NCBI GenBank assembly: GCA_963730935.1
Contig: CAVSTP010000004.1
Span: 768,001-832,000, forward strand
DNA length: 64,000 nucleotides
Source: an uncultured Nitrospiraceae bacterium
GTDB taxonomy: Bacteria; Nitrospirota; Nitrospiria; Nitrospirales; Nitrospiraceae
Reading direction: 5' to 3'
The position numbers were made by a program, and so were the translations under genes. The notes below the pieces were generated by a model that was given only the letters and a program-made list of their open reading frames with translations, ran no database searches and was not told where the DNA came from. Below, piece by piece: positions 30,786 to 63,376 of this stretch. Numbering within the stretch: position 1 is the stretch's first letter; each line of letters opens with the position of its first letter.

Positions 30786-30985
30786 TCGTCAGAGATAAGT
30801 GCAGAGATTTCTTTCCCATCAGCAACGAGCCAAGAAAAGGGGAGAGGCTACTTTTCTAACTGCTTTGGGGAAGAGAAACGGTGCCAGGAACCATTTCGCG
30901 GCGCGTGGCGGACTGGTTTAGCGCTCTCTGGTCCTCTTTCCCCTCCTTCACACTGCGATAGACGTAAACGACTCGCCAACGTAGA

Positions 30986-31375
30986 ATGTCACGCTTGGGA
31001 ACCCTCATATGGACGTGCCCCTTGTGTGCAGGTAAAAGAAGTCTCATAGCTGAAAACCTCCACGCCTTTGCAATAGAGGACAGTTTCCCAGTCTCGCCAG
31101 GTCACAGCCTCGTGATCCCGAAGACACATGTTCCGACCTTATTTGATCTGTCCAACGAGGCATATGCGGCCTGCTTCGACCTGGCGAGTGTTATGAGAAA
31201 CCTTCTTCTCAACAAGTACAAGCCTGACGGCTTTAATATCGGAACCAATTGCGGAGAATCTGCCGGCCAAACAATCGCCCACGCCCACCTTCACGTCATC
31301 CCTCGCTACACCGGTGATGTGCCTAACCCTCGAGGGGGAATTCGTCATGTCATTCCCGGCAAAGGCTACTATTAA
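30986..31375 (+). CDS. HIT family nucleotide hydrolase
   Basis: CPLC, FPVSPGHSLVIPKTH, GFNIGTNCGESAGQTIAHAHLHVIPRY (HxHxH triad); exact start uncertain. Confidence 0.92.
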   Translation: MSRLGTLIWTCPLCAGKRSLIAENLHAFAIEDSFPVSPGHSLVIPKTHVPTLFDLSNEAYAACFDLASVMRNLLLNKYKPDGFNIGTNCGESAGQTIAHAHLHVIPRYTGDVPNPRGGIRHVIPGKGYY

Positions 31376-32408
31376 ATGATTGAGCCATTACTTGAGACGG
31401 TCAGTCGCATCATTCGCACTGGACAAAACTCCAATTCCTATAAATTTGCCCTCCTAAGGACCCTTGCCCATATAGCTTCGAGAGAAACGACGAACCCAAG
31501 GACCATATCAAGGGATCGCCTTGCAGAGTGTTTCATTGCCTTTTACTGGGATCTCACCCTGAAATATCACGTACGCCAAGGGACGAATCCGGACAAGGAT
31601 CCTCGAGTGATGCGGCTGATACGAAATTTGCACCTGATTCCAGAAAAGACAGCGTTGCAAGAGTTCGAGGCGACCGACGACTACAAGAAATTGGTGAAGC
31701 AAGTGGCCCGTGAAGCTTTCGATGATGTTATCCCTCGTCTACATACTGTTAGAGGGGGCGAACAGAAACCTAAGCTGTACGAGCAGGACGGAGACAGAAT
31801 CAGGATTGAAGACCGCACATTTGAGTTCCTAAAGAGTCATTCGCAAGTTATTACTCAGCTCGCAATCGTTCGCTGGCTCGGGTCACGGAGCAGTTCACTT
31901 GCTCCTAAGTAGCTTCAGAAAATCTAAGGTGAATACGAACGAAGGGCAACTTTACAGAAGGTTTCTGGGCCATTAAACAGGAAATATCTTGTATTGTGCT
32001 GCTCAAGTGGCTACAAGACCCCACGCTGATCACGTCATACCTTGGAGCTACATCCTAGAAGACAGGGCATGGAACCTTGTATTGAGCTGCGACAGGTGCA
32101 ACCGCAACAAATGGTTTTACCTTCCTCCTGAGAAGCCATTCCTCGACAAGCTTATCCAGCGTAACCAACTCCTAATCCAAGGTAATCTCCAGTCCTTTCC
32201 TAATGGGACAAAGATAAAGAGAGACTTCGCCGAATGGGACGCCCCCCGCTTGGACAAGCATATCCGGGAGTCCTGGCATAAGGCACAAGCAGACGGATTC
32301 AGAATTTGGCAGCCTTCTTTGGATAATAATGGGGGAAAGAAAACGGGATATTATGAATTTCGCGGCATGTGGCGGAGGTTCTTAGAACAGGAATCATGCT
32401 TCCTTTGA
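31376..32408 (+). pseudogene. HNH endonuclease-domain protein, frameshifted near 31870-31990
   Basis: N-terminal NSYKFALLR...FIAFYW; C-terminal YC...HADHVIPWS...AWNLVLSCDRCNRNK in the next ORF. Confidence 0.75.
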
Positions 32409-32890
32409 AAAAGAAACGAGCTTCCGCTCTCTTTGAGTCGTTCGGAAAGATTCTGGATGAGCTAAGACGTAGAGATATACTACGCAGTAGTAATAGCCCA
32501 ATCTCTGACTTTGCAGAGCTGCTTGTTTGCCGTGCCCTAAAGCTTGAGCGTGAGCCGCCGTCCACCAAGGGATTTGATGCGAAAGATCGCCGAGGCCGGC
32601 GGTACGAGATCAAAGGCCGTCGCCTGACTCCCTGGAACAACTCCCGCCAGCTTAGTGCTATTCGTGATATAGAAGGGGAACATTTCCAATTCCTGGCTGT
32701 TGTGCTCTTCGAGAATGACTTCTCGATTTGCCGTGCATGTGTTGTACCGGCAACTCTTGTCACGACCTCCGCGCGATATAGGAAAAATGTTAATGCGTGG
32801 ATACTCCATGCAAACGATAAGCTTTTCCAACATACAGATGTTAGGGACATCACAAATGAAGTGCGACGGGCCTGGCGCAATACCCGCTAA
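32396..32890 (+). CDS. PD-(D/E)XK-like nuclease (DUF6998-like)
   Basis: SDFAELLV...STKGFDAKD...YEIKGRR...RQLSAIR. Confidence 0.7.
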   Translation: MLPLKKKRASALFESFGKILDELRRRDILRSSNSPISDFAELLVCRALKLEREPPSTKGFDAKDRRGRRYEIKGRRLTPWNNSRQLSAIRDIEGEHFQFLAVVLFENDFSICRACVVPATLVTTSARYRKNVNAWILHANDKLFQHTDVRDITNEVRRAWRNTR

Positions 32891-33008
32891 CTCAGACTTC
32901 GTGGCGTAGCGGGCCGGCTCGTTCCTCGCCTCCGCCGTCCCCTCACCGCTGATCGCACCTCACACCGCGATGGACCTGCGCATCCGTAAAAAGTAGAATG
33001 CACCAACA

Positions 33009-33356
33009 ATGGCTAAAGCAAGACCAAGAAGTCCTTCTCTTGCCAATCGCCGACTGATTCGCGGGAAAACGGGTGGACGATGTCATGTGTGTGGTGGACC
33101 ACTCGGTAGAAACTGGCACGCTGATCATGTAAGACCGCATGCAATAGGAGGCACCTCTTTAATTGATAACTACCTCCCATGCTGTGGAATCTGTAATCGG
33201 GCACGATGGATGTCTGGATCGAAAGTGATCCGGCGACTGTTTATGTACGGAGTCGTAGCTCGAAAAGAAATACGAGCAGGGACTACGCTTGGTAAAATGT
33301 TTTTGAAGCAAGTGAAGAAACACGTTCTTGGCAAGAGACTGCGGAATAAGATGTGA
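33009..33356 (+). CDS. Small HNH endonuclease
   Basis: KTGGRCHVCG...WHADHVRPHAIGG...NYLPCCGICNRAR. Confidence 0.88.
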   Translation: MAKARPRSPSLANRRLIRGKTGGRCHVCGGPLGRNWHADHVRPHAIGGTSLIDNYLPCCGICNRARWMSGSKVIRRLFMYGVVARKEIRAGTTLGKMFLKQVKKHVLGKRLRNKM

Positions 33357-33774
33357 ATCGATCCCGGCAGCCGGCGCGTTCCTCGCCTCCCCGTCCGCCC
33401 CTCTCACCGCTCATCGCACCTCATACCGCGATAGACCCCGCCCACGTGAAAACGTAGAATGTCCTGGTTTCTTTGACCCCGGTTGGCGCCACCCGAAAGT
33501 GCATGGCTTGAAACCAGAAGTACGGCCTGAGTTGAATTGACCCGCTGACTCTTCATAAGCAGGTCGTATCATCTCAAGAAGTCATATAGCCTTGGTGGGC
33601 GCTTCCACATGAACCTTTCGCTGGCCTCTCCTGACTCACTGGGCAGAGACCGTGAGTTTCAGAGACGCTCAAAGAAGGAGGAATCGCCACGTGGATTCTA
33701 TTCGTCATGCGCTGAAAGAGATGCAGACTAAACATACTAATCCCTGAGTCTGCGCCGTATGAAAGGAGAGAGCC

Positions 33775-34839
33775 ATGAGACCAAGTACTCGCGCAGTCAT
33801 CGTGATCGCGGGCGCACTTCTGCTTGGTGTCGGATTGGCGGGTGCTCAATCCGCGCCAGTTGCACCCCCTGTTAGAAGTCCTGCGCAAGACGACCAGCCC
33901 GCGATCACTGAACAGCCAGCAGAGTCTCGTCCAACGACGACGCCGGAACGGGAAACGGCGGCACCGGACGAGGGCCGGATCGAAGATCGAGGCGTTCCAG
34001 TCAAGCCGCTGCTCGGCGTTCCGCCCACGGCCACCGCACCTCTCAAGCTTGTGGGGCCCACAGAGAATCTGACGAAGGTTATCAATACGCTCACGCACAA
34101 ACACAAGAGTCTTACAACCGTGATCACCACCGCACCGGGCCTGCAACTCACGCAACCGGTCGAGATTAGCATCCTCTTTATTTCGCCGTGGGGGACCAAT
34201 ACGCGCCTCACGCAACCCTATCAAAATAAATTCGGGAATCGTTTTGTCTACAACGATCCCGAAGGTGAAGGCAAACTGCGGCACCTGCGCATGGATATCT
34301 GGCTGACCGAGCCCAAGCCGGATGGCGGGCACTATAGCTACTCCATGACCTGGCAGGCGGATCTTGATCCGTTGTACGACATCACGGTCAGCCCGTTGAT
34401 GTTTACATTGGTGTCCGATTGCGACACTGTTCCTCTTGTGGGAACCCCGCTCGGCAATAGTGAAATCCGATTTCATTGGGCGGATCCAGCCATTTCTGAT
34501 GGCTGGTACAACTTGTCCTTCAACACCGTGAAAGGCAGGCCTGTGTCGATCAACCAGTTCGCCTGGTCGCGCACAGAATTGAGCGCGAGCGCCGTTGCCT
34601 CCATGAACCTCCATTTACCGGCCATTCTCTGGAAGGAACATGATCCCCATCTGGGGGTCGAATATGGAGGCTTACCAACGTTTTCCAAGGTGCCGCTGCC
34701 GGCCACAACCCAGGACTTCCAGTTCGCTTTATTCCCAGGTCAGCTATATCCCGGCCCGGAAGAAATTCGGGGCAATACATGCATCGCCCGACTCCAATAC
34801 AGGATTACGCGCATCCTCCGCACGTACTCCACTCTGTAA
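33775..34839 (+). CDS. Secreted hypothetical protein with Pro/Thr-rich N-terminus
   Basis: Signal peptide (LLLGVGLAGAQS), AGGAG RBS, 354 aa. Confidence 0.75.
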   Translation: MRPSTRAVIVIAGALLLGVGLAGAQSAPVAPPVRSPAQDDQPAITEQPAESRPTTTPERETAAPDEGRIEDRGVPVKPLLGVPPTATAPLKLVGPTENLTKVINTLTHKHKSLTTVITTAPGLQLTQPVEISILFISPWGTNTRLTQPYQNKFGNRFVYNDPEGEGKLRHLRMDIWLTEPKPDGGHYSYSMTWQADLDPLYDITVSPLMFTLVSDCDTVPLVGTPLGNSEIRFHWADPAISDGWYNLSFNTVKGRPVSINQFAWSRTELSASAVASMNLHLPAILWKEHDPHLGVEYGGLPTFSKVPLPATTQDFQFALFPGQLYPGPEEIRGNTCIARLQYRITRILRTYSTL

Positions 34840-34972
34840 GGGGAATCGAAAGGAAGAATCCAGATATGAAAGCCAACTAACAAGAAAAGGGGAGAGGCTA
34901 CTTTGCTAAGTGCTTGAAGATTTGGGAACCGGTGCAGGAACCATTTTGCGGCGCGTGGCGGGCCGTGTGATA

Positions 34973-35305
34973 TTACGCTGCCGCGTCATCAACCCCGGCA
35001 TGGCTGTATTTCGTGTGTTTCAATAGTGCGCCGGTCTTCCAATTGGCGTACGCGCCATAGGCATCCACGAGAATTCCCTTGAGTCCACTCGACTCTTCGA
35101 GCGCATACACAACCGATGAATCGTCCGGGTCAGACATTCCTTCGAAGCGGTGATGCTCGACAATTGTAAGGTCATCGCTTTTGAAAGTCCGGTCACCTGC
35201 AGTAAGCTGCCCGTCCTCTTTGGCAACCGTAAACTCGGTGGTGAATCCGCGCTGCCGCAACCCTTCCACCGCCTCCACCATGCTTTTGTAGACGTGAGTT
35301 GACAT
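34973..35305 (-). CDS. Conserved hypothetical protein (family often mislabelled phosphoribosylpyrophosphate synthetase)
   Basis: EAVEGLRQRGFTTEF, HRFEGMSDPDDSSVVYAL, KGILVDAYGAY; GGAGGAG RBS. Confidence 0.8.
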   Translation of the reverse strand: MSTHVYKSMVEAVEGLRQRGFTTEFTVAKEDGQLTAGDRTFKSDDLTIVEHHRFEGMSDPDDSSVVYALEESSGLKGILVDAYGAYANWKTGALLKHTKYSHAGVDDAAA

Positions 35306-35602
35306 TGCCACTCCTCCTTGAACCTTCTTGCTTCTTTAATAGTATGGGCCAGCGACACGAGGCAAGGGACTAGCGAATGCCCGAGAGTTAGAAAGCACAG
35401 AGGAAGTGGGAACATTCTCAATTTCGCGCAGTGTGGCGGGCCGGCGCGGTCCTCGCTCATCCCCTCACCGCTCATCGCACCTCACACCGCGATAGACCCC
35501 GCCCACGTGTACCGTATCCAAGCTTGCTCTTCGTGATGCATCCCTCCTCGGCTTTGCGCTAGACTGCCTCCATCAGTCTGCATTCTCAATCTGAGGCCTA
35601 GC

Positions 35603-36628
35603 ATGACAGAACCCCCCGCCGCGTCGGTCCCGCCTCATGCCCAACTGGTGCAGATGGGCACGGCGCATTGGATGTCGCATGTTCTTTACGTCGCTGCGAA
35701 ATTGAGCCTGGTCGATCATATGGCCAAGGGGCGGACACGAGTTGATGACCTGGCCGCTGTAACGAAGACTCACTCCGCTTCGCTCGGACGCTTCCTCCGG
35801 ACGCTCGGGCATCTTGGGCTCGTGACCGAAGACGGAGAAGACCGCTTCACGTTGACGCCGCTTGGTGAGGCGCTGAAGACCGGCGCGCCCGGTTCGGCGC
35901 GGGCAGCAATCCTGACGCTGGCAAGCCCTTGGATCACGAACGGATGGACACACTTACTCGAGTCGGTCCAAACCGGAAAGCCGGGATTGGACCAGACCCT
36001 CGGCATGCCCATTTTCGACTGGCTAGCAAAGCATCCTGAAGAAGCCTCGCTGTTCAGCGAGACCATGGTGAGTTTTCATGGAGCCGAACCGGCGGCAGTG
36101 GCCGCGGCCTACGATTTCTCCACGATGAAGACGGTCATAGACATTGGCGGGGCAACGGGGAATCTCTTGGCTGCGATTCTCGCTCGATATCCTGGCTTGC
36201 GCGGCATCCTGTACGATCTTCCGCACGTTGTTCGTGATGCTCCGGCCCTGCTGGAGGCTCGTGGAGTGACTGATCGTGCAACAATCACGTCCGGCAGTTT
36301 CTTCGACCGTGTGCCAAGGGGTGGCGACGCGTATCTGTTGTCGCACATCATTCACGATTGGTCTGAGGCGCAGTGCCTGACAATACTGGGCCACTGCCGG
36401 AGCGCCATGGCACCGTCCAGCCGCGTCCTGATCATCGAAATGGTCCTGCCGTCCGGCAATGCGCCACATCCCGGCAAGATGCTCGACATGATGATGCTCG
36501 TCGGTCCCGGAGGCCAGGAACGGACCGAGCCAGAGTATCGCACGCTTCTCAGCAAGGCTGGGCTTCGGTTGACCAAGGTCGTGCCCACGAATTCTGCCGT
36601 AAGCGTCGTGGAGGCAATGATCGCCTAA
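35603..36628 (+). CDS. O-methyltransferase (dimerisation domain + Methyltransf_2)
   Basis: VIDIGGATG, LYDLPHVV, GSFFDRVP, LLSHIIHDWS, GGQERTEPEY. Confidence 0.92.
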   Translation: MTEPPAASVPPHAQLVQMGTAHWMSHVLYVAAKLSLVDHMAKGRTRVDDLAAVTKTHSASLGRFLRTLGHLGLVTEDGEDRFTLTPLGEALKTGAPGSARAAILTLASPWITNGWTHLLESVQTGKPGLDQTLGMPIFDWLAKHPEEASLFSETMVSFHGAEPAAVAAAYDFSTMKTVIDIGGATGNLLAAILARYPGLRGILYDLPHVVRDAPALLEARGVTDRATITSGSFFDRVPRGGDAYLLSHIIHDWSEAQCLTILGHCRSAMAPSSRVLIIEMVLPSGNAPHPGKMLDMMMLVGPGGQERTEPEYRTLLSKAGLRLTKVVPTNSAVSVVEAMIA

Positions 36629-36983
36629 TTATTAAGCCGCAGAAGGAGCGACAAGAAGAAGGGGACACGGAGGGAGAGAAGGTGTCATCAACTATTTCGC
36701 GGCGCGTGGCAAGCCGGCGCGTTCCTCGCTTCCCCGCCCCGTTCCATCCGATCGCTCATCGCACCTCACACCGCGATAGACCCCGCCCACGTGAAACCGT
36801 AGAATATCCTCGCTTCTTCCATAGAAGTCAGACTCGAAAGGCGGTTAGGTCTTGCAATCCAACAAAACAGATGACGCTTTGAAAGATCTCGCTGAGAGGC
36901 AGACGATCGCAGGAGACATAGAAGCCGCCAAAGCAACTGCATCCCAAATCACCTACTTCAATTACCGGCGGCAAGTCTGGAGA

Positions 36984-37162
36984 ATAAGAAAGGGGACAGG
37001 CTACTTTACTAAGTGCTTGAATGGTCTTCCACGCTTCCTTAAGGTCGATTCTAACCTCAGTGCCACAGCGGTGATCGATCGCCACGAGTTCGTCCCAAAC
37101 GGCTGTTGTCGATTCACACACGTGCGCACCGCCCTCAATTCATGATCAAACAGGGCTCATCG
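36984..37162 (-). mobile_element. Truncated copy of the 3' end of the RAYT transposase gene plus its terminal repeat
   Basis: Near-identical (about 4 differences in 180 bp) to 41444-41624. Confidence 0.92.
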
Positions 37163-37506
37163 GGGATAAGAAAAGGGACAGGCTACCTTTCTAAGTGCTT
37201 GAAGAGTTTCGAAGTGGTGCCACCAACCATTTCATGGCGCGTAACGGGCCGGCTTACTCACCGCCCCTCCCAGCAGGACATCTTGCGGACTCCCCTCGTT
37301 GACGTCGTTTCTACCGCGCTCTGCATGCCGGTCTGGATTCGAAGATAAATTTGCCTTATCCTGCACGGCTAAACCTGCTTAGGGAGTATCTTCGTTGAGC
37401 TCCGACCCAGCGTTCCGATCGCTCTGTATCCGGGAGACACTTGCCTATCGAACCTAGGAGGTTGTTGAGACGACCTATGGAATGAACCGGTCAGGGGAGG
37501 TGCACC

Positions 37507-38445
37507 ATGAAGCTGAATAAGCTTGCAGGCGTGACGTTCGGGGCAGCAATCGGCCTTTTCCTTCTCGGATCAGAACGCGCGCTCACTCAGCCTCAGCAAC
37601 CACTCGTCGGTTCCGGATTTGACCTGGATTTTCACAAGAGACAATTCCCGTCAGGAATCCCCGTGGCAGATATCCTGCCTGTACCCGGTCGAAAGACGGA
37701 AAGCGGTCCCAATATTCCTCTCCCACAGGACCATTTCGATGTTACGACTGTCGGACCGGTGGAACCGATTCCGAAGATCGGCTTGCAGGGGTTGGTTCTC
37801 GCTTCTACCCAGCCGGATCTCGTCATCCGGGGGCTCAGTTTCACCCCGGAAGGGAAGGTCCGCTACTTCGTCCTCAACCTGAGTACCCAAGCCGTCGCCC
37901 CTCCCTTTGTCGTCGATCTACTCTACAACGGTCAGCGGCGCGATACAGTCAAACACAACGGTCTGCCTCCGCTCAGTCAACAACGCGTGGAGTCCTCATT
38001 GGCCAATCCGGGTGGCTGCGCAATTGCACAACTCCGTGCAATTGCAGATACACAGCAGACCGTGGCGGAGACGAACGAAGCCAACAACACGGAGGTGAAT
38101 TCACAAGTTCCACCCTGTCCCGACCTGATCGTCCACATCGAGAAGGAGGAGACGGACACGCTTCACTATCGTGCGAAAATCAAGGTGACCAACAAGGGAA
38201 ACCGAGCAGCGGGCAGACCGTTCATCGTGTTTGCCCGTGAATCGAGCGGACCGGCGGGCTATATCACCGTGCCGCCGGCAGAAAAGCGGATCGACGATCT
38301 TGAAGCAGGGGCAACCACGAGCTTTCACTATGGCGGCAATCATCTGAAGACGTCGGCGGTCGGCTATCATGCCATTGTGGACCGTTTTGACGACATCAAG
38401 GAATCCGATGAGACAAACAACAATGTTTCGAAAACGCTGCCGTGA
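37507..38445 (+). CDS. Secreted protein with two CARDB-like Ig domains
   Basis: Signal peptide; PDLVI...ADTQQTVAETNEANN and PDLIV...VTNKGNRAA...VDRFDDIKESDETNN. Confidence 0.85.
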   Translation: MKLNKLAGVTFGAAIGLFLLGSERALTQPQQPLVGSGFDLDFHKRQFPSGIPVADILPVPGRKTESGPNIPLPQDHFDVTTVGPVEPIPKIGLQGLVLASTQPDLVIRGLSFTPEGKVRYFVLNLSTQAVAPPFVVDLLYNGQRRDTVKHNGLPPLSQQRVESSLANPGGCAIAQLRAIADTQQTVAETNEANNTEVNSQVPPCPDLIVHIEKEETDTLHYRAKIKVTNKGNRAAGRPFIVFARESSGPAGYITVPPAEKRIDDLEAGATTSFHYGGNHLKTSAVGYHAIVDRFDDIKESDETNNNVSKTLP

Positions 38446-38744
38446 GGGAACCATCCACTAATGAATCACATCTGCGAGACGATCTTCGTCCCAGCTGCAA
38501 TTCGTATCTGCGGATGAATGAACCATTTCGCGGCGCGTGGCGGGACGCACGTTTCCGCGATTCTCCGCCTCGCTCCTCCTACCGGAGCCGCGCACGCTAC
38601 GCCAGCATTTTCACTGCAAAACAAAGTAGCCTGTCCCCTTTTAACCCCACACAGCACACATGGTCACTGGTTTCCACAACTGACTTGGTATATGTTCTGC
38701 GCCTGCGGTTTCAGAACACGACTTCATCTCAGGGGAGACTTACG

Positions 38745-39251: not shown

Positions 39252-39521
39252 AGAGAAGAGAAACGGGACATTCTGCTTTTTCTAATCCATAAGGAACCAT
39301 TTCGCGGCGCGGGGCGGGCCGGATCGTTCCTCGCCTCCCTGCCCCTCCCCTCTCCCTCACCGCTCATCGCACCCCTCACACCGCGATAGACCCCGCCCAC
39401 GTGAAAAAGTAGAATGTCATAGTTTCTTTCTCATGCTCGGCACTATGGCATCAGGAATTTTGGACAATCGCGACATAAGTTGATTCACGCGACGCCGGCC
39501 ATCTAGCTCAGAGAGACCACT

Positions 39522-41421: not shown

Positions 41422-41449
41422 AAGGAGAAAGAGTCATACCAGGATAAGA

Positions 41450-41468
41450 AAAGGGGACAGGCTACTTT
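41450..41468. repeat. Inverted repeat at the 3' side of the RAYT gene
   Basis: AAAGGGGACAGGCTACTTT, 18/19 complementary to 42155-42173; overlaps the stop codon. Confidence 0.9.
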
Positions 41469-42112
41469 ACTAAGTGCTTGAATGGTCTTCCACGCTTCCT
41501 TAAGGTCGATTCTAACCTCAGTGCCACAGCGGTGATCGATCGCCACGAGTCCGTCCCAAACGGCTGTTGTCGATTCACACACGTGCGCATCGCCCTCAAT
41601 TCATGATCAAACAGCGGCTCATCGAGCCAGTGCAACCAGTCGCTGGGCGTCTCGACAGGAATAGGATCACTCACGTGAGAAAAGCGCAGACGTGTCCATG
41701 GCCAGTCCAACACTTGGTTCGCTAGTCCTGCCCGAACCGGATTGCGGAGAATGTATCGGATCACGATCAAGAGATGATCGTCCTGCTGAATGGGAAAACT
41801 CTTGAACCGGCCCTCCCAGAGATGTCCATGGCTCCGGTAATGCTCGTGATATCGTCGGACATGGCTCGTCATCCACCACTGCATGAAGGCACTCACTGCG
41901 CCGTCGACAGCTGGCTGTACAACCAGATGAAAATGATTTGGCATGAGACAGACGGCCAGCACTCTGACCGAGAATTTGGTTCTTGCTTTGGCGAGAAGGT
42001 CCAAGAAGACTGAATAGTCACCGTCTTTGTGGAAGACAGTCATGCCTCCATTGCCGCGATTGAGTACATGGTAGGCATACCCGGCTACTTGTCCGCGCGG
42101 AATCCGAGGCAT
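41462..42112 (-). mobile_element. REP-associated tyrosine transposase (RAYT, Y1/HUH superfamily)
   Basis: MPRIPR...YHVLNRGN, CLMPNHFHLVV (HUH), GHLWEGRFKS, RYILRNPVRAGL (catalytic Tyr), RGRP tail. Confidence 0.93.
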
Positions 42113-42154
42113 GGGCGCGGACGGTACGCGAACCAGCATTTTCGATGCAAAGGA

Positions 42155-42173
42155 AAAGTAGCCTGTCCTCTTT
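42155..42173. repeat. Inverted repeat at the 5' side of the RAYT gene
   Basis: AAAGTAGCCTGTCCTCTTT, followed by a partial second copy GTGTCCCCTTTA. Confidence 0.9.
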
Positions 42174-42282
42174 AAATAGTGTCCCCTTTAAATTAGCTGT
42201 AACAAAGCGCCATAATTTAGCGATGGAATTCGCTTATCCGCCCCGAAGGAGCACGTCAGGAGTCGACTGGACATAAAGCTGT

Positions 42283-44719: not shown

Positions 44720-44751
44720 TTATCCGCGGCGTGCCGCCTCGATTGCGGCGA
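44720..44751 (-). pseudogene. Remnant 3' end of a VOC-family gene (copy of 51149-51180)
   Basis: Encodes AAIEAARRG* versus AAIEVARRG* of the intact gene. Confidence 0.7.
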
Positions 44752-45619
44752 CAGCCTGCATGCACTCACTCACCCAATCGCTCAAAGACCTAACAGATTG
44801 AGGCGTCGCCCGTCTGACGCTCCCGCGATTGCTCCAACACTGAAACGACCTGTCTTCGGTGTATCTATTTCGATCCTGGGAATCTATTTCGATTCCCAGA
44901 TTCCATGCCTTCTTTAGCAACGATTGTTAAGCTTCGTCTGTCTCTAATCGACCCTTACCATTTTAAGGCGTTGATATCGCTGCTACAGCATTGAAGGCAC
45001 TTCGTGTCCAAGATTGGTCCAGCAGTTGCTCATATGTCCTTCAGCATGGGGCAAGGAAACAACGCCATGAGAAGCCTCCTCGATTACCTGCTCGTCCTCA
45101 TAGTGCGATTTGGTGCAGGGTCTGCGCTCGTGATGGTCAAGAATCTCTGTCCCTAGCGAGAGAACGTGGGAAAACAAGAAAAGGGTCGGGAGTCTTTTCT
45201 TGGGGAATAGGAAACGGTGTCAGGAACCATTTCGCGGCGCGTGGCGGGCCGGCCTGTTCCTCGCCTTCCTGCCCTCCCTCTTCACCTCTTCACAACTCAT
45301 CGCACATCACACCGCGATAGCCCCCGCCCACGTGTAGAACGTCTGGATCTCGACCGAAGTCAGACTAGAAATGCTGTCAGGCCAGTTTCGCGGGGGGGGG
45401 CGGGCCGGCTCGTTCCGGGCCTCCCCGTCCTCTGCCTGATCCCTCATCGCTCACCGCACCTCACACCGCGATAGCCCCCTCTTCGGTGTGCAAGAAAAAG
45501 TAGCCTGTCCCCTTTTAATCAGCGTGCAGCCTTGGAGCATTTCTCCTTTTCGATTGTTTTATGGCTTGCTCTCGTCTAGCTTAGAGTCTTGAGACTGAAG
45601 AATCGCTTTCGCTTATTAG

Positions 45620-53736: not shown

Positions 53737-53929
53737 TGGCCCAGAAAACCTGAGTACAAATCAGGGGCAGTTCTTGACCTTGCACCTCGGACGAAACCGA
53801 TAGACGGGACTGAACAACCATTTCGCTACGCGTGGCGGACTTGTCTCTAAACACTGCCGTCCGCCACCTATGGGGTCTATGCTAGGGAATACAGAACCAG
53901 TCAAGAACCGAGGGACAAAGGGTGATCTG

Positions 53930-54493
53930 ATGAATCAACAATCTCGCAATGGACATACTCACGGCTGGACGAGACTGGGCTTCTGTCTCGCTGTCCTGCT
54001 ATGCGGAGCGGCTATCGGATCTGCAGAGGAAACGCCAGTTCCTCCGCCTCCAAAAGACACACCGCCTCTAGAAGGTGGTGACGTGCAGGAGCGAGGCGTC
54101 ACAAAGGGCGACGTTGGGAATTTGAAGGACAAAATGCTTCAGCAGAAACTTCAGCCTCAGCCAGGAGGAACTCCTCCCCCACAGCTCTGCCACACCGAGA
54201 CTCGGATGATGACGCAGTGCAAGTGTTTCAATCAGGCGGAGTGCCAACCGCTTTCGGCGCTGTTTCCCAATCCCTGCCCGCCGGGCAGCCAGCATTGCGA
54301 ATTCGTGCCGATGGCACGAGGTACCCTGCCTCCGTTGCCACCGAATCTCTGTGGATATCAAGTGCCTTGGACCTTCACCCAGTGCTCGTGCCACAACCAA
54401 ACCGAATGCCAATTACTCTCACCTTTTTGTCCTGGCTCCTGCCCAGCTGGAAGCCAGAGCTGCAATTGCACACCCTTACGTAGAGGAAATTGA
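53930..54493 (+). CDS. Secreted Pro/Cys-rich protein with two internal repeats
   Basis: Signal peptide; LC..TQCKCFNQAECQ..CPPGSQHC / LC..TQCSCHNQTECQ..CPAGSQSC. Confidence 0.75.
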   Translation: MNQQSRNGHTHGWTRLGFCLAVLLCGAAIGSAEETPVPPPPKDTPPLEGGDVQERGVTKGDVGNLKDKMLQQKLQPQPGGTPPPQLCHTETRMMTQCKCFNQAECQPLSALFPNPCPPGSQHCEFVPMARGTLPPLPPNLCGYQVPWTFTQCSCHNQTECQLLSPFCPGSCPAGSQSCNCTPLRRGN

Positions 54494-54731
54494 TCGGATG
54501 GAATGATCGCCTGAAATAGCCGTGGCCTTGCCCATGCTGCCGTATGCGCAAGAAAAAGGCGTCAGGACCATTTCGCGGGGCGGGCCGGCGCGTTCCTCAC
54601 CTCGCCCATCCCCACCGCTGATCGCACCTCACACCGCGATAGACCCCGCCCACGTGAAAACGTAGAATGTCCTGCTTCCTTCGACCGAAGTCAGACTCGT
54701 TGAGAATGCAACCCTCAGAGATCATGCAATC

Positions 54732-55568: not shown

Positions 55569-55692
55569 GGAGCAAGAAAAGGGGACAGTCTACTTTTCTG
55601 CATGAGAAAAGGTGTCAGGACCCATTTCTCGGCGCCTGGCGGGCGGCTTGTTCCCGCGAGACAAACGCATGGATTGAAGGAACGGAACGACG

Positions 55693-56658
55693 ATGCCTCC
55701 ATTTCCAAAGCCATCATTTAGTTTTTCTTACCAAGTACAGACTGAGATCACAGCGCTTCGCCGTCACAAGGCAAAACCAGACCGGTTGATTCCCACCAAG
55801 ACCACAAATCGTCTGCTCCTTGCGACCTGGAATATTGCCAATCTTGGGGTGCAGGAGCGGCGCAGCCAGGATTATCAACTGATCGCCGAAATGATCAGTT
55901 GGTTTGATATCGTGGCTATTCAAGAAGTGAATGACAATCTCATCGGCCTTAGAGGAATTCAACAACATCTGCCTACGATGATGCGCACGCTATTTTCCGA
56001 CGAGGCGGGTAACAACGAGCGAATGGCATTTATCTATGACTCCACAAAAGTCACCCTGCGAGAAAAGGTTGGAGAGATCGCCATTCCTCCCAGTGAGAGT
56101 CGGTACATCACACTGCCGGGCATTAACCAGAAGTTTGATGGGTTTGATCGCAATCCTTACATGGCTGCGTTTCAGGCAGGGAATTTCCAATTCCTGCTCA
56201 TCAATGTCCATCTTTACTATGGGAGCGATTCAGCAGTATCGATGAACCGTCGAAGTTTAGAAACTTTTGCCGTGGCTCGGTGGGCGGACAATCGCAGAAA
56301 GAGTCCCAACTGCTACTGCCAAGACATCATCGCGCTGGGGGATTTCAATCTTCCAAAAACCAAGCCAAACGATCCGATCTTCGATGCTCTCACAAGTCGC
56401 GGCCTTCACCTCCCTGAGCATACGTCAGAAGTTGGATCGAGCATCGCCTCTGACAATCATTATGACCAAATTGCCTTTTTCCCTGGTCAGACAAGCCAGG
56501 AGTACACCGGCAATACCGGCATCTTCGACTTTGATACTGCAGTGTTTTCGACATTATATGGCACAAATCCCAACCCGAATCAGAAGCAACAATTTTTCGC
56601 TTATGTCCGATACTATCTTTCGGATCATCGCATTATGTGGGCGGAATTCAGGACCTAA
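55693..56658 (+). CDS. Endonuclease/exonuclease/phosphatase family protein
   Basis: ATWNI, DIVAIQEV, NVHL, LGDFN, YDQI, SDH motifs. Confidence 0.92.
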   Translation: MPPFPKPSFSFSYQVQTEITALRRHKAKPDRLIPTKTTNRLLLATWNIANLGVQERRSQDYQLIAEMISWFDIVAIQEVNDNLIGLRGIQQHLPTMMRTLFSDEAGNNERMAFIYDSTKVTLREKVGEIAIPPSESRYITLPGINQKFDGFDRNPYMAAFQAGNFQFLLINVHLYYGSDSAVSMNRRSLETFAVARWADNRRKSPNCYCQDIIALGDFNLPKTKPNDPIFDALTSRGLHLPEHTSEVGSSIASDNHYDQIAFFPGQTSQEYTGNTGIFDFDTAVFSTLYGTNPNPNQKQQFFAYVRYYLSDHRIMWAEFRT

Positions 56659-56880
56659 CGATTGTCCGCGGTCGTTTTGCTCCTTGAAAAGAGAAAAGGG
56701 ACATTCTACTTTTCCAGAAAGACCCATTAACAACCATTTCCCGGCGCATGACGGACCGGCTTTGAATCACTACCCTCTCCTGACCGATCTTTCCATCGCG
56801 TCAGCAATAATCAACGATGGCTACATCAGTTTCATGACTCGCCATCATCCAGATCCTCTAATACTTTCCACTCGCCATCC

Positions 56881-58041
56881 CTAGAATGGCATAAACTCGA
56901 AGTTCTGCGGAACAACGGGAGGCACCTCTATTTTGGGACGTTGAGGAGGACCAGGCGGCGATGGCCGTTCCCCGAGCGTGACATCAAGTGTGTGTGCCTC
57001 ACCATCTCGATGGACCTTGAGCGTAACGGACTGCTCCGCTTTCAGTTGCTTGAAGACCTTGGCATACTGCCCGCTAGTCTTAACGTCCTGCCCATTGATG
57101 CTCACGATAATATCCCCGCCCAAGACCCATGGTTCTCCCTCAATGGTCACATCCAATTCACCGGCGCGGAGTCCGACCCTTCGGGCGGGACTTCCTTCTT
57201 CTACATCGATGATGAGCAAGCCCCCTACAAGAGGCAACGCAATGAGATTGCGCAATTCGTCGGTCACAAATTTTCCTTTAATGCCTAGCCAAGGTCGGAT
57301 CACGCGGCCATGGGCCCGCAGTTCTGGCAGAACAGCTTTCACGGTATTGATCGGAATGGCAAACCCGATGTTCTGCGCTCCCAGCAAAATGGCGGAGTTG
57401 ATGCCGACCACGCGGTCCTCCGAATCGACGAGCGGACCGCCGCTGTTCCCGGGATTAAAAGGGGCCGTCGTTTGAATGACCCGGTCTTGGAACACTTCCT
57501 GTTTGGTCTCAAAGAGTTTGCCGAATCCACTTACAATGCCTGTTGAAAAGGCATAGCCAAGCCCAAACGGATGTCCAATAGCGAGGACTTTTTGGCCGAT
57601 TTCGAGTTTGTCGGAATCCCCAAGATGAGCAGGAGCATATTGCCCTTTCGGGAGGGTGACCTGGAGCAAGGCGACATCGGTTTGCGGATCGCTTCCGATC
57701 AGCTCTGCCGGCAGACGAGTCCCATCATGTAATGTCACGGTGATTCCAGCTGCTCCTTCCACGACGTGTGCATTGGTGACAATTGCGCCTCTTTCATCGA
57801 TCAGAATCCCGGAACCGAGACCTTTGTCCGATGCGTGAGCGATGTGATGGGAGCTGACGTAGGCTGAGGCCACCAAGACGGTGGATTTCGCCATCTGCTT
57901 ATAGACCCTCACGCTGTTCACTTCCTCCGGCGTGACCAAGGCGGCACCGAGCAAGCTTGGTATTCCCGTGCAGACGGTCAGCACTAGACAAGCGACAAAC
58001 CAGCTAAGGAGCGAGCTCATAGAATTGCAGCACTGTCTCAT
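56881..58041 (-). CDS. HtrA/DegP-like trypsin protease with PDZ domain
   Basis: VTNAHVV, TDVALL, NPGNSGGPL, C-terminal PDZ; AAGGAG RBS before ATG 58041. Confidence 0.93.
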   Translation of the reverse strand: MRQCCNSMSSLLSWFVACLVLTVCTGIPSLLGAALVTPEEVNSVRVYKQMAKSTVLVASAYVSSHHIAHASDKGLGSGILIDERGAIVTNAHVVEGAAGITVTLHDGTRLPAELIGSDPQTDVALLQVTLPKGQYAPAHLGDSDKLEIGQKVLAIGHPFGLGYAFSTGIVSGFGKLFETKQEVFQDRVIQTTAPFNPGNSGGPLVDSEDRVVGINSAILLGAQNIGFAIPINTVKAVLPELRAHGRVIRPWLGIKGKFVTDELRNLIALPLVGGLLIIDVEEGSPARRVGLRAGELDVTIEGEPWVLGGDIIVSINGQDVKTSGQYAKVFKQLKAEQSVTLKVHRDGEAHTLDVTLGERPSPPGPPQRPKIEVPPVVPQNFEFMPF

Positions 58042-58305
58042 CGAGGTCTCCTTCCTTGGAGAACAAGGCGGGTGGCATCTTAGTACACAGTCGCGCCAAG
58101 ACTCGAAAAGGTTACACGGCATGAGCTACATTTTTGGTTTCTGGAGGTCTTTGGAGTTGGGAACCTATGGCAGTTCCCTGTCAAATCCTGCAGATATACA
58201 TGTGATGCGTGGCGGGCTGGGTTAAATTTGTGGGACCGATGAGGTTTTACGTCCGAACCAGAGAGGTCGCTCTTTATTCACCGTGCTCAATCGCGTGTGT
58301 AGTCC

Positions 58306-58725
58306 CTACGGGCCATTCACCCACCACTGAAGTTTCAATCGGGGCCGGATGTACGGGATGCCCCATGACCGAATAGAGAGCCGCCAACAATGATCGCTGC
58401 CGCCAATGACTGCAATGAATGTGCGTTCGTCAATCCATTTGATGTCCTGAAGCAAGAATGTTTCGTACATCCAGCCGAGCCACCGACACGATATCAGCCG
58501 CAAGGGCTCTTTGCTGATGAAGGCGAAATTCGTGATCTCTTCGAACGGGCAATCGTAATCGGTGATGAGAATGTAGCCGTCCGATGTCTCGAACTGGCTT
58601 AACAATACGTACCCGGGCAACGAAAGCTTGGTACGCTTGCCATCCAAAAACAGGCGGGAACGGAGTGGCCAAGTCTCATATTCGCCGTCGTGCTTCTCCA
58701 GCGTAAATCGGTTGATCGGCTTCAT
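58306..58725 (-). CDS. Hypothetical protein
   Basis: 139 aa ORF adjacent to an R4 copy (ITDYDCPFEE motif). Confidence 0.65.
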   Translation of the reverse strand: MKPINRFTLEKHDGEYETWPLRSRLFLDGKRTKLSLPGYVLLSQFETSDGYILITDYDCPFEEITNFAFISKEPLRLISCRWLGWMYETFLLQDIKWIDERTFIAVIGGSDHCWRLSIRSWGIPYIRPRLKLQWWVNGP

Positions 58726-59097
58726 ATATCAATTATAGCGAGAGCATGGCGGACCGGCTCGTTGCTCGCCTCTCCGCCACCTTCACCGCCCATCGCACCT
58801 CACACCGCGATAGACCCCGCCCCCATGAAAACGTAACATGTTCTGGTTTCTGACGCGTGCCGGACCGGTCTTATTGCCTGCTCTCCGTTGAACCTGTCCT
58901 TTTCACTCGCTGACATACAATCATCATGCCGGTTTTATCTTTCCTTATGCATTGACAGGGGAAACGTACTTACTGTCAATTCTGACAGTTTCCTTCGACC
59001 CACTCAGTCCTTACACTTCGTACGCATCAGTTTATATGTTGCTCTGAGATGTTCGTGTCCGAGTTGAGCGACACACATTAAGAGAGGAGACACTCTC

Positions 59098-59520
59098 ATG
59101 AGACGACTTGTTGTATTGCTGTTTTCAGTTGCGATGGTATCAGGCGCTGTCGCTGCCAGCGCCGAAACGTCTACACCGACCGACACGCCTCCCGCCAAAC
59201 TGATCGTGGACCCTCCAGTTCCTGACCTTCTGGCTCAGGGCATCGTCTGGATCACGTGGCGAGCGGAGAACGTAAACATCGGACCGGAGTCCGGCAAAGA
59301 CGCCCTCAACGCATCTCCACGGGTTGGACATCTGCACATACACGTTGACGACCTGCCATGGTTGTGGGCGCACATGAGTACTGCCCCGATCGACGTGGCC
59401 TTGTTGCCGCCCGGCCCGCACAAGATCAGAATCGAATTGGTGAATGCCATCCATCAAGGCGTCCCCGAGCAGTCAAAGACAGTGACGTTCACCATTCCTG
59501 AGGGAGCGCATCCTCACTGA
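59098..59520 (+). CDS. DUF6130-like secreted protein
   Basis: Signal peptide, PPAKLIVDPP, SPRVGHLHIHVDDLPWLWA, LPPGPHKIRIEL. Confidence 0.8.
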   Translation: MRRLVVLLFSVAMVSGAVAASAETSTPTDTPPAKLIVDPPVPDLLAQGIVWITWRAENVNIGPESGKDALNASPRVGHLHIHVDDLPWLWAHMSTAPIDVALLPPGPHKIRIELVNAIHQGVPEQSKTVTFTIPEGAHPH

Positions 59521-59569
59521 AGGTCGTGGAAACTCTAGCGCAACGTCTGGCGCAAAGGCGGGATGTTGG

Positions 59570-60484
59570 ATGGTTGATATCGGCCCGATACTTGTAACCG
59601 GCGCAGCGGGTCAACTCGGGGCGGTTGGCAGAACCGTGACTAGCCTTCTCCTCGATAGAGGTATTCCGGTTCGCGCCATGGTCCGCCGCGAGGACGAGCG
59701 GGCCGCTGCTTTGCGAGCCGCAGGCGCCGAGGTGGTGGTTGGAAACCTGCTCGAACCGGCCGACGTCTATCGAGTCGTGAAAGGCTGCCAGCGCGTCTAT
59801 TTCAGTATGTCTGTGTCTCCAGGGTATTTAGAGGCGGCACTCATCATGGCGGCAGTCGCCCGGGAAGTCCGGGTCAACACCCTGGTCAACATGTCTCAGA
59901 TGACTGTCTCGCAGATGAGCATCCAGAACACAACCCCGAGTCATCAGCAGCGCCAGCACTGGCTTAGCGAACAGGCGTTCATGTGGTCCGGCGTGCCAAT
60001 CGTCACCATCCGGCCAACCATGTTCCTGGAGAGCTTTCTCCCCCTCGCAGGTCCCACGATTCGCGACCGTAGCCGCATCGAGCTGCCATTCGGACGGGGC
60101 AAGACTTCTCCGGTTGCTGCGGCTGATGTGGCCCGCGTCGTCGCTGCCGTCCTCTCTCACCCTGGGCCGCACATCGGCCAGATATACGAACTCACGGGGC
60201 CTCGGTCGCAGGACATGCACGGGGTCGCTCGGGAATTCTCAGATGCACTGAACCGAGACGTCACATACAGTGACATCCCACCAGAGGATTGGGATCGGCA
60301 TCTACAAAACCAGCAAGTGCCGGAGCATCTCGCCCTGCACCTGATGACGATGGCCGAGTTGCACCGAGCCGGTCGGTATGACCGGATGGCTGACGGCGTG
60401 CAGCTGGTGACTGGCCTGCCAGCAATGAGCATCCGGGAATTCGTGTCGCTTCACGCGGATAAGTTCGGCGGTCGTCGATCTTAA
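59570..60484 (+). CDS. NmrA-like NAD(P)H-binding protein
   Basis: ILVTGAAGQLG, VRAMVR, IRPTMF, VAAADVARV, YELTGP. Confidence 0.9.
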   Translation: MVDIGPILVTGAAGQLGAVGRTVTSLLLDRGIPVRAMVRREDERAAALRAAGAEVVVGNLLEPADVYRVVKGCQRVYFSMSVSPGYLEAALIMAAVAREVRVNTLVNMSQMTVSQMSIQNTTPSHQQRQHWLSEQAFMWSGVPIVTIRPTMFLESFLPLAGPTIRDRSRIELPFGRGKTSPVAAADVARVVAAVLSHPGPHIGQIYELTGPRSQDMHGVAREFSDALNRDVTYSDIPPEDWDRHLQNQQVPEHLALHLMTMAELHRAGRYDRMADGVQLVTGLPAMSIREFVSLHADKFGGRRS

Positions 60485-60796
60485 CGATCACTAATAAGAA
60501 GTCATCAGGAACCATTAGGAGGCGCGTGGCGGCCAATCTCACGGTCTTCCCCTCTGCGATGGACTGAGGCGATCCAGCGAAGTAGAATATCCTCCGCTGC
60601 CGCACCTTTCTTGTTCTCATCGCACCGAACTCTGATGTGCATGGAGGCTGTCATGAGGAGGACGTTCGTCATTTCGCGGCGCGTGGGGGACGGCTCGTTC
60701 CTCGCCTCCCCGCCCTGCTCGCTCATCGCACCTCACACCGTAATAGACCCCGCCCCACGAAACATGTCCTAGATTCTTCGACCGAAGGCATGACAT

Positions 60797-61090
60797 TTAC
60801 GTCAGCTCACCGACAATCCCACGAAACTCGTCCTCGGTAAAAGCCTTCACCGTCTGCGTTCGGAGATTGCCTTGCGAGCCAAGCCAAAGTAGATGTTTTG
60901 CAAGAGTTGCATCATTGGGCACGTCGACAATGGCCAACATGTCATATGATCCCGTAGTGAGATAAAATGCTTTGATTTCTCCGCCCATTTCCTTCAGCTT
61001 CTTCCTTCCAAGGTCGAGGCGTTTTGCTGATTCTTTCACGCTACGAATACCCTGATCTGTCCACTGTGACTGGATTATATAAGTAGGCAT
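60797..61090 (-). CDS. GYD-domain protein
   Basis: WTDQGIRSVK, FYLTTGSYD, GNLRTQTVKAF; AGGAGG RBS. Confidence 0.9.
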   Translation of the reverse strand: MPTYIIQSQWTDQGIRSVKESAKRLDLGRKKLKEMGGEIKAFYLTTGSYDMLAIVDVPNDATLAKHLLWLGSQGNLRTQTVKAFTEDEFRGIVGELT

Positions 61091-61406
61091 GTGTGACCTC
61101 CTTTGAGTCAGGTTGAAGATGAGGATCGATTGTAGCAGGGTGCCTAGCAAGAAAAGAAATCGTGGCAGAAACCATTTCGCGGGCCGGATCGTTGCTCGCC
61201 TTCCCGCTCCCTCCTCTCACGGTTCATCGCACGTTACACCGCGAGGGGTGGAATCAGTGGAACCAATAGAAATCGGGCAACTAAACCAGCTGCAGATCAA
61301 GCCGTTATAACAATTACCCTGGCACGCTCTTTCTCAACAGAAATTGCTTCAGACAATTAACTCTGTTACTACATTCCCCAATTGTAGTGAGTCTCTTCGG
61401 CAATAC

Positions 61407-61757
61407 ATGAAAAGAGCTATCATTCTGACGAGTATTGTTCTCACAGCGTGTTCTGCAACAGTTCCTGCGACTATGAAGATCGAAAGAAATCAAATCCTGC
61501 GAGGATCTGCGAGCGGGAAGGTAGGGAGGGATGCGGTTATTTCCGTGAACAATATCGAAGGTCTGTCCTGCGCCGGGAAGATGTTTGTTCCGGTCACCGA
61601 AACCACTACTGAAGGCACAATCCAATGTAGCGACAAGCGGAAAGGGAATTTTACCGCGAATGGTAAGGGCGACTCGTGGGCGGGAGAAGGAAAACTGAAC
61701 GATGGATCGAAATTCTTAATTTTGCTTGGAACGAAGAGGACACCGCTAGAGTACTAA
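61407..61757 (+). CDS. Hypothetical lipoprotein
   Basis: MKRAIILTSIVLTAC lipobox; CSDKRKG, GEGKLNDGS. Confidence 0.75.
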   Translation: MKRAIILTSIVLTACSATVPATMKIERNQILRGSASGKVGRDAVISVNNIEGLSCAGKMFVPVTETTTEGTIQCSDKRKGNFTANGKGDSWAGEGKLNDGSKFLILLGTKRTPLEY

Positions 61758-62056
61758 AGCGCGACGCCCTATCGGTTCTCCCGGAACAAGAAAAGGGGAC
61801 AGGCTACTTTTCTAACATATTAAACAGCCATTGCTCGGCGCGTGGCGGAGCCGGCTCGTTCCTCACCCCGCCTCCTCAGCGCTCATCGCACCTCACACTG
61901 CAATAGATCCCGCCCGAATGAAACTAGGGCGTAGAGCCATTGACTCTCTCCTCTAACTTCATCAGAATTTGCCTTTCGCTTCATCATTCATTTAACAAGG
62001 TTTTCACAGCAGTTATCGGAGATTGGCAGGTCCTGGCTCAACAAGGAGGAACTACC

Positions 62057-62239
62057 ATGGGGAAAATCGTTGAGTGCGCCAAGGTTGATCCATCGTCCGG
62101 ATGCACACATGTAATCAGGGGCACCACCGAAGAGGAAGTACTCAAGAAAGCCGCGGAACACGCAAAGCAGCATGGAATTCGAGAGGTCACCCCGGAGCTC
62201 AAGGCTAAAGTAAAGGCAGCAATCCGAGACGAGAAGTAA
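62057..62239 (+). CDS. DUF1059 small protein
   Basis: C...GC...GTTEEEVLKKAAEHAKQHG; AGGAGG RBS. Confidence 0.85.
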   Translation: MGKIVECAKVDPSSGCTHVIRGTTEEEVLKKAAEHAKQHGIREVTPELKAKVKAAIRDEK

Positions 62240-62534
62240 CCTTTCCCTCAAGCTCTCTATCAAAGCTTGATCCGGCCCGCCTCGCTAATGGAGGAGTGGG
62301 GGGGCCGGCTTGTCGCTCGCCCCCCTCACCGCCCATCACACCTCACACCGCGATAGACCCCGCTTACGTGGAAACAAGAAAAAGGGACAGGCTACTTTTC
62401 TGATAGAGGAGAGAAAGGTGGCAGGACCCATTGCGGGGCTCATCCCTGACGTAATGGATACGCTTTTCCATTTCCGCTACACTGCGTCAACATTGCCTAA
62501 TGGTTACACCAAATACAGCTGCACGTGAGAAATC

Positions 62535-63068
62535 ATGATTAATCGACGCTTAAAAGTGCTCGCTTCGATCGGTCTGGCTGTGGGAGGCGTCCTCGGCATG
62601 GCGGGGACGTTCGCCCCGTCTGCGGCTCTCCGCGGTCTCGCGTGGGGAATCGACGGTGCTGCTCTCGTGATGGCCGGCGCGATTCTGACCGTCGTGTTCT
62701 ACAGAACGGGACAGGACCTCGTGGCAGCAGGTTTTCTGGTCTTCGCCATTGGAGAAGGCATCATTCTGTCGGGCGCCGCGATGGATCTCGAGACCAGCAT
62801 TCCGTCATTTGGAGCCGGAAGCGTTCTCTGGGCGATGGCCCTTGCGCTCATCAGTCTTCCGCCTGTCTTTCCTTTTCTCGTACGAACACTGGGGCTGATC
62901 GCGGCGAGCATGTTCGCATCGACAGCGCTACAAATCTTCTCCGGCGAGCATCTCACACCCGTCTCGTCCCCCTTGCCCTTTTTCGCGTATCCCTTCTTCA
63001 TTGCCACATTCGTCGGCTGGATCTGGACGCTCTTCAACATTCCTGGCCCGCTGCCCCCAGAGGGATGA
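62535..63068 (+). CDS. Hypothetical multi-pass membrane protein
   Basis: 177 aa with about six hydrophobic segments. Confidence 0.75.
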   Translation: MINRRLKVLASIGLAVGGVLGMAGTFAPSAALRGLAWGIDGAALVMAGAILTVVFYRTGQDLVAAGFLVFAIGEGIILSGAAMDLETSIPSFGAGSVLWAMALALISLPPVFPFLVRTLGLIAASMFASTALQIFSGEHLTPVSSPLPFFAYPFFIATFVGWIWTLFNIPGPLPPEG

Positions 63069-63376
63069 TGTTGCGAGGCGTGACGGACAGGCTCGTTTCG
63101 TGCTTCCCCGCTCTCTCACCTTCGTCACACCTCACACCGCGATAGACCCCGCCCACGTGAAAAACGTAGAATGCCCTGGTTTCCGAAGGCAGGACTCGTA
63201 CAGGTGTGAAAAGTTACTGGAGCGCTTAGCTTTTGTGGTTAAAACAATTCGTCTTGATTATGAGAAAGGTACCGAATCCTTTCCCGTAACCCTATCTCTC
63301 AGATTAGGGATTACCTATTGCCATGGATCAGAACCATCCATGATGATTGGTATGCGATTGAACGTTCTTGAACCAG

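Follow-up and report, generated by a model that had tools for sequence, protein, structure and literature searches.

A site-bounded, shuffled gene array at a fixed chromosomal locus of Nitrospiraceae and its circumstantial link to a TIRYT-type transposase

The chromosome of an uncultured Nitrospiraceae bacterium (GenBank assembly GCA_963730935.1, 4.05 Mb, here called G000, with other G numbers given to related genomes) carries a long array of unrelated genes separated by copies of one co-oriented repeat, within which lies a gene for a Y1 HUH transposase flanked by terminal inverted repeats (TIRs), a TIRYT. We studied it from a 64,000-nucleotide stretch of contig CAVSTP010000004.1, positions 768,001 to 832,000, called the window below (contig coordinate C4:894k is window ~126 kb). 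Comparisons among related genomes and metagenomes established the cassette boundaries, the fixed orientation, the fixed locus and the fusion of TIRs to the sites. This is a real, site-bounded, shuffled gene array that we could not assign to any known system, and the transposase is its likely but unproven catalyst.

A sequence-only reading of the window had reported ~24 copies of a 20-nt core, all on the + strand and none in the first 30.8 kb. Scanning the window at ≤3 mismatches gave 21 copies (32954-63126; mean of 0.00 in 100 shuffles), a lower number with the orientation (21/21 on +) and the empty 1-30.8 kb as described. When partial sites were counted with cores the window held 32 elements, close to the ~33 claimed. 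The whole genome contained 24 copies of this core, the 21 of the window plus C4:536317(-), 738064(+) and 837482(+). A profile of the left module of the element gave 69 matches in the genome (2 in the reversed genome), with 59 in C4:798.8-894k, 59/59 on +, and 10 elsewhere, and a second site profile placed 51 of its 61 matches within the array locus, all on +, with 10 outside. The ~10 outlying G000 sites are weak or isolated and lie on either strand. Hence, the repeat is concentrated at one locus rather than dispersed at random over the genome.

The array is ~95 kb long and ends at about C4:894k, its left third lying in the window; gene order common with more distant relatives restarts only at window ~175-182 kb. 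As the array extends to window ~126 kb, the transposase gene, which had been described as its centre, lies near the left end. By open reading frame (ORF) calls made for this analysis, 30 of the 57 inter-site intervals hold one gene, 10 hold none and 17 more than one, and genes across the entire array lie on both strands (60 on + and 38 on -). The cargo is miscellaneous. A Pfam scan of 65 chosen ORFs of the window matched most of the families that had been named (HNH, O-methyltransferase, CARDB, SDR, Tll0287, 3-dmu-9_3-mt, HtrA, GYD and DUF1059), with SAM_HAT/DUF62 below the cut-off and the EEP-type gene giving only a sub-cut-off MnuA-nuclease match.

30831..63183, + strand: part of the array within the window, 32 co-oriented full or partial sites (site and core scans); the array runs on to ~C4:894,000
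53824..54573, + strand: example cassette running between two sites; a G047 cassette with other neighbours is 96% identical to it
55628..56739, + strand: example cassette with a nuclease-like gene, matched at 94% identity by a cassette of G047, where it and the 53824 cassette stand in the reverse order

Among 180 blocks shared between genomes, orientation was kept in 178. Ends of these blocks fell ≤60 bp from a detected site in 75/178 cases on the left and 109/178 on the right, with a background of 5-9% of positions per genome. As the sites are intergenic, this proximity alone could reflect gene ends, and further tests were therefore made. Of the site pairs from different genomes, 54 had just the downstream cassette in common, 64 just the upstream cassette and 2 both. 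Comparison with metagenome contigs gave 42 downstream-only, 41 upstream-only and 1 two-sided pair. This excess of one-sided pairs (118 vs 2, and 83 vs 1 with metagenome contigs) gives good support to the cassette array that had been proposed. The non-coding flanks behaved likewise: the left flank tracked the upstream cassette (62% vs 2%; unrelated pairs 1%), the right flank tracked the downstream cassette (78% vs 0%; unrelated pairs 5%), and partners changed within a core of ~20 bp. An orthologue retained its right neighbour in 6/66 cases across a site vs 13/36 where no site was detected, and thus gene order is not conserved between strains at the sites. The longest collinear subsets comprised 30/37 orthologues for G000-G047, 7/19 for G000-G048, 10/18 for G000-G006 and 3/11 for G047-G048; judged from gene order, close relatives differ mostly by insertions and deletions, and genuine reordering shows up among more distant genomes. 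For one G047 cassette, an 82% homologue was located in G000 beyond the array, where two co-oriented sites enclose it. Narrowing of the crossover by rare variants was uninformative, shared variants at core positions 0-12 being found in 0/90 downstream pairs and 3/106 upstream pairs. In these comparisons the unit of gain, loss and reordering is the segment from one ~20-bp site core to the next in fixed orientation, and the exchanged unit has a TIR on its right and, in many cases, promoter-like sequence on its left.

In the full element a TIR precedes the core CATTTCGCGGCGCGTGGCGG, after which come a pyrimidine tract, the 20-nt core of the sequence-only reading and a degenerate inverted TIR. TIRs at both ends are found only in the fullest copies, and most copies retain the core alone. 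Across the 220 sites anchored, which came from 12 loci, conservation was highest between positions -5 and +15; the longest-lived part of the site is the ~20-bp core CATTTCGCGGCGCGTGGCGG instead of the 20-nt core of the sequence-only reading.

39259..39426, + strand: representative full element, with core at ~39298-39318, promoter-like TAGACC-17-TAGAAT and degenerate inverted TIR
45228..45248, + strand: consensus copy of the ~20-bp exchange core, with a type-2 TIR directly to its left
33432..33460, + strand: sigma70-like promoter match in an intact element (further matches at 30959, 32971, 36777, 39387, 40483 and 43020)

Intact elements hold the promoter-like TAGACC-17-TAGAAT, and the next gene was on + after 21/25 promoter-like sites vs 58/114 other sites. 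The motif probably works as a promoter. A TIR abuts the core in 105/220 sites (79, 20 and 6 of three TIR types; control 1/219), and 29/220 sites have an additional TIR further left, 18 of these being of the type of the resident transposase gene. Four TIR types are present in the array, and for each of them G000 or a related genome has a TIRYT gene flanked by that type. The array TIRs were not specifically of the 3' type, as the 5' and 3' outer flanks gave similar counts (12/69 vs 14/57). The array site had no Rfam match in 27-64 kb and no match in plasmids, nor, as an exact 21-mer, in viral contigs.

The core was present in 16/32 other genomes of the genus, and the site motif in 22/401 genomes of the phylum: G000, 19/87 of its family, 2/41 of one other family and none beyond. 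Sites lay on one strand within each array in G047 (49/49), G048 (59/59), G045 (10/10), G023 (15/15), G228 (33/33) and G046 (11/11), and nearly so in G006 (20/22), G009 (5/6) and G414 (3/4); G048:C6 repeats part of G048:C4 and was excluded from subsequent counts. An inverted duplication in G006 (L035:123-10164, G006:C44) with sites and one cassette explains why minus-strand sites occur where that contig begins. Among 127 metagenome loci, those with several sites were co-oriented in 70/70 cases. Where the flank was assembled, the array had its start to the right of one shared radical-SAM gene pair (G047, G048, G001, G046, G009, G340, G150 and G414), and arrays of relatives at this shared locus held different cargo. 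Only 42/159 complete metagenome cassettes matched the six genome arrays compared, and hence the cassette pool is large.

23255..27370, - strand: conserved left flank, the radical-SAM gene pair marking the fixed locus in relatives
27816..30785, + strand: leftmost variable block (TIR-domain protein, caspase-like protein and unknowns; ~48% GC), which stops at the first site

Within this low-GC block, the ThsB-like TIR-domain gene (a protein domain of that name) and the caspase-like gene at window 27816-29155 resemble an anti-phage defence module.

The sequence-only reading had named a RAYT-type Y1 transposase as the possible agent of the array, and such a gene was found as the sole PF01797 match in the genome.

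41462..42139, - strand: intact TIRYT-type Y1 HUH transposase gene, 225 aa, with H69-F-H71 and Y129-x-x-x-N-P (PF01797, E 8e-14; alignment; fold match 4er8)
41446..41468, + strand: repeat of TIR type 1 with the GGGGACAG motif, at the 3' terminus of the transposase gene
42154..42173, - strand: 5' terminal inverted repeat of the transposase gene
36989..37153, + strand: direct duplicate (165 bp, 99%) of the 3' end of the transposase gene, TIR included, at a distance of 4.46 kb; a further TIR and a site follow it

The closest fold to the modelled transposase was that of E. coli TnpA_REP (4er8), and the model has a C-terminal extension of ~90 aa with helices, which gave no helix-turn-helix Pfam match. 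The NCBIfam model for REP-associated tyrosine transposases (NF047646) scored 72.9 bits, below its cut-off of 80. Compared with the G046 copy, identity by codon position was 0.78/0.87/0.48, the differences being mainly at third positions. Inverted GGGGACAG repeats flank the gene and thus mark it as a TIRYT by the criterion of PMC3733652 and PMC6006769, and the repeats fit the motif GGGG[AT][CG]A[CG] of PMC6006769. By these sequence features the enzyme is a member of the known TIRYT family, and it probably belongs to RAYT group 1, subclass 2.1. Coding-end duplicates were seen at 7/85 other TIRYT loci, 9/9 of them direct and one a whole-gene duplication. At C4:838324-838419 (L001:8327-8419) a 5' fragment of the transposase (~aa 1-31) is fused to a site, and similar 5' fragments are found in the G006, G009 and G228 arrays. 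In a contig titled Pyrinomonadaceae (L060:3130-6805), a TIRYT of 72% identity is accompanied by a single site and by a direct duplicate of the gene's 3' end; either horizontal transfer or misbinning could account for this.

The reading we consider best, and somewhat probable, is that a fixed chromosomal locus serves as an integron-like platform for cassettes, which TIRYT-type Y1 HUH transposases would excise and reinsert as single strands. The TIRYT would bind single-stranded DNA at or beside the TIR and nick two sites on the same strand, the nicked sites would be joined to release a circular cassette, and the circle would be strand-transferred into another site, mostly near the left end of the array. 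Old distal sites would decay to the bare core, the same reactions would yield truncated direct copies of the transposase 3' end as by-products, and arrays would outlast loss of the TIRYT gene. An enzyme that cuts and joins single strands would need both sites on one strand, which would explain the strict co-orientation. TnpA_REP, a relative of this enzyme, cuts and rejoins single-stranded DNA sites in vitro (PMC3333891, PMC8266576).

The polarity expected of insertion near the left end was found in part. Intact elements cluster leftward in G000 (rho -0.54) and G047 (rho -0.30), and G047 shares 17% of the 30-70 kb segment of G000, 65% of 70-90 kb and 42% of 90-130 kb. Intact TIRYT genes lie ~2.6 kb (G046), ~7 kb (G001) and ~14 kb (G000) from the left flank, and the gene faces against the sites in these three genomes as well as in L060 and G162.

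Several observations weigh against transposase-driven exchange. Leftward clustering was not significant in G048 or G006, polar growth being seen in G000 and G047. The G000 and G047 arrays are mostly collinear (30/37 orthologues). The TIR type of the resident gene abuts the core in 0/220 sites, and a derivation of CATTTCGCGGCGCGTGGCGG from the 3' end of TIRYT genes could not be detected, 118/200 shuffles reaching its score (85 genes). No TIRYT match was found in G047, G048 or G023 (82, 76 and 89% complete); in G047 and G048 the array is assembled contiguously and holds no TIRYT gene. Seven flank-bearing loci chosen by their site included one with an intact TIRYT gene and two with fragments. Conversely, six TIRYTs of 61-71% identity at other loci had no site nearby, G502 and G219 carry TIRYTs at the array locus without any site, and 79 TIRYT loci, mostly from other phyla, showed TIR pairs or dimers and no arrays. 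The genomes compared are kin rather than independent samples, so that p-values overstate and the counts show the pattern rather than exact significance. Hence, the link of TIRYT to the array is circumstantial: four TIRYT TIR types at the sites speak for the RAYT catalysis that had been suggested, the arrays of G047 and G048 and the six close TIRYTs speak against it, and we can only infer catalysis from sequence.

Arrays as a general property of TIRYTs were also considered and rejected: 52 loci with a defined 3' TIR gave 8 solitary copies at a distance (4 direct, 4 inverted). At some further TIRYT loci in relatives (L029, L031, L034 and L027), TIR or end copies occur in co-oriented groups of 2-4 with spacings of 1-7 kb, which resemble mini-arrays. 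At the array locus itself, three TIRYT genes are stacked in G502 (L313, G502:C276:8478-12471) and two in G219 (L328, G219:C1:1299814-1303501), with differing TIR types and no sites, and as such stacking occurs there the locus is a TIRYT hotspot.

That accumulation of TIRYT genes even without sites fits a different explanation, which we regard as unlikely though the strongest of the alternatives: a miniature inverted-repeat transposable element (MITE) bounded by TIRs spread locally in a plasticity zone, and host homologous or microhomology recombination between direct copies deleted or swapped genes, the TIRYT having seeded the repeats and moving no cassettes. The full element is non-coding, bears a TIR at each end and can fold with its two arms paired, arrays persist without TIRYT, the difference between G000 and G047 is largely one of insertions and deletions, and families of TIR repeats including dimers and clusters have been described (PMC3733652). 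With regard to insertion into conserved empty sites, as a MITE would make, site pairs sharing both sides were rare (2/120). The partner switch is limited to ~20 bp with cassette-specific sequence on either side, a length that is short for RecA, and the core is conserved while the remaining element decays. Nor was a replication-fork effect supported as the cause of co-orientation, the strand-to-skew relation of the array being found in 1/6 strong outlying sites (a small number with weak local skew).

Arrays without TIRYT, a resident TIR type that never abuts the core and a core of unexplained origin would also suit a true site-specific cassette system in which the core is the target of another recombinase supplied in trans, either a tyrosine recombinase or a protein not yet recognised, and TIRYT elements merely home beside the site. 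G000 has 13 PF00589 matches. However, Pfam showed no recombinase gene at the locus, the nearest PF00589 matches being short fragments ~60 kb to the left, the TIR of TIRYTs is fused directly to 105/220 sites, and the site is limited to one family and one neighbouring family. We judge this explanation improbable.

A classical integron, or a cluster of attC sites lacking integrase (CALIN) with atypical attC sites, has a similar architecture, and IntI occurs elsewhere in the genomes of G005 and G046; this explanation is largely refuted and very improbable, as IntI exceeded the cut-off in 2/10 genomes, not including G000 (best TIGR02249 score 86 bits vs a cut-off of 265), and lay 2.6 Mb from the array in G046, attC ends of the form RYYYAAC plus GTTRRRY were found in 0/58, 0/48 and 0/54 sites, and cargo lies on both strands. 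In G000, no nearby intI with canonical attC sites explains the array.

Other repeats of this genome were noted in passing. Left of the array are two unrelated families, a 44-nt tandem unit and a 126-nt three-copy repeat (7864-8071, 12938-13160, 14504-14629 and 25232-25357). A repeat of the form CCTGACTGG ... GACACCCCTTCCCAAGGGTGG occurs in small co-oriented groups at C1:178659, C3:20805 and C3:22146, with further copies at C4:273535, 426525, 533392, 534152, 535662 and 536439 and a degenerate one near 738020. It adjoins several outlying array sites, two copies are ~1 kb from tyrosine-integrase matches, and it is possibly a second mini cassette system. An integrase fragment beside a tRNA-like sequence (C4:736147-736570, L006:4147-4570) lies ~1.5 kb from the outlying core C4:738064 and a downstream ORF.

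Integrons are the textbook platform for stockpiling and shuffling unrelated single genes. We put at about even the chance that the array represents a second, independently evolved integron-type system, in which a domesticated HUH Y1 transposase moves cassettes at a TIR-fused site of ~20 bp, building arrays of ~100 kb at one locus family-wide with promoter-bearing sites. If so, an HUH-based integron equivalent would be a new route of accessory-genome turnover, missed by searches for intI or attC, and the largest RAYT group would have a host-beneficial function. We know of no substrate for RAYT group 1. That group is the largest and its role is left open (10.1101/119735), and why hosts keep RAYT-type transposases is an open question (10.1101/119735; PMC6006769). 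The locus makes the question of retention testable, as it offers one defined enzyme, an exchange window of ~20 bp and >200 natural site variants. Even if another enzyme is responsible, the site-bounded array is real, and by the tests run it is not an integron.

The array shares with sedentary chromosomal integrons and CALINs a fixed locus, co-oriented sites that bound cassettes varying between strains, a predominance of single-gene cassettes, an older and eroded distal part, an enzyme gene near one end that faces the other way, and arrays that apparently persist beyond the enzyme. It lacks IntI and attC motifs, and its TIR-fused sites, its cargo on either strand and the promoter-like sequence in many sites set it apart. 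It works like an integron and fails two tests that define one, IntI and attC. IS91/ISCR elements, pdif modules and the rAID arrays of Bacteroides provide HUH-based capture or cassette arrays without IntI, and use Y2 or tyrosine recombinases and other sites; our search for Y2 transposases gave matches in 0/5 genomes, with control searches equally blank.

The transposase itself agrees with TIRYTs or TIRtrons (PMC3733652), subclass 2.1 of TnpA-Y1 (PMC6006769) and RAYT group 1 (10.1101/119735), all Y1 HUH enzymes with Y-x-x-x-N-P and a C-terminal extension, and, like TIRYT/TIRtrons, has inverted GGGGWSAS repeats on either side as well as TIR copies at a distance from the gene. In the excerpts of that literature TIRs are single, dimeric or grouped with no function shown, and cargo arrays, a fixed platform or cassette exchange were not met. 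As claimed before, the system appears undescribed: no account of such an array was found in the literature searched, which mostly left out subscription papers, and the TIRtron tables of PMC3733652 could list clustered TIRs. The names TIRYT and TIRtron themselves turned up in just two works. REPtrons, REPINs and bacterial interspersed mosaic elements (BIMEs) involve the same fold (4er8), and single-strand cleavage and rejoining have been shown and flanking-gene capture suggested for them (PMC3333891, PMC8266576). Unlike repetitive extragenic palindromes (REPs), which are GTAG-tagged hairpins spread genome-wide, the array site is concentrated at one locus in one orientation. Among the co-oriented gene clusters of prochlorosins, subclass-2.1 TnpA_REP occurs as full genes and as C-terminal fragments, and recombination was proposed to drive diversification (10.1101/2020.03.09.984088); there one gene family is diversified, a TIR association was looked for without success and a post-submission note withdraws the causal claim. 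That system, probably of the same subclass, is the nearest precedent, the array described here having instead unrelated cargo and a mapped point of exchange.

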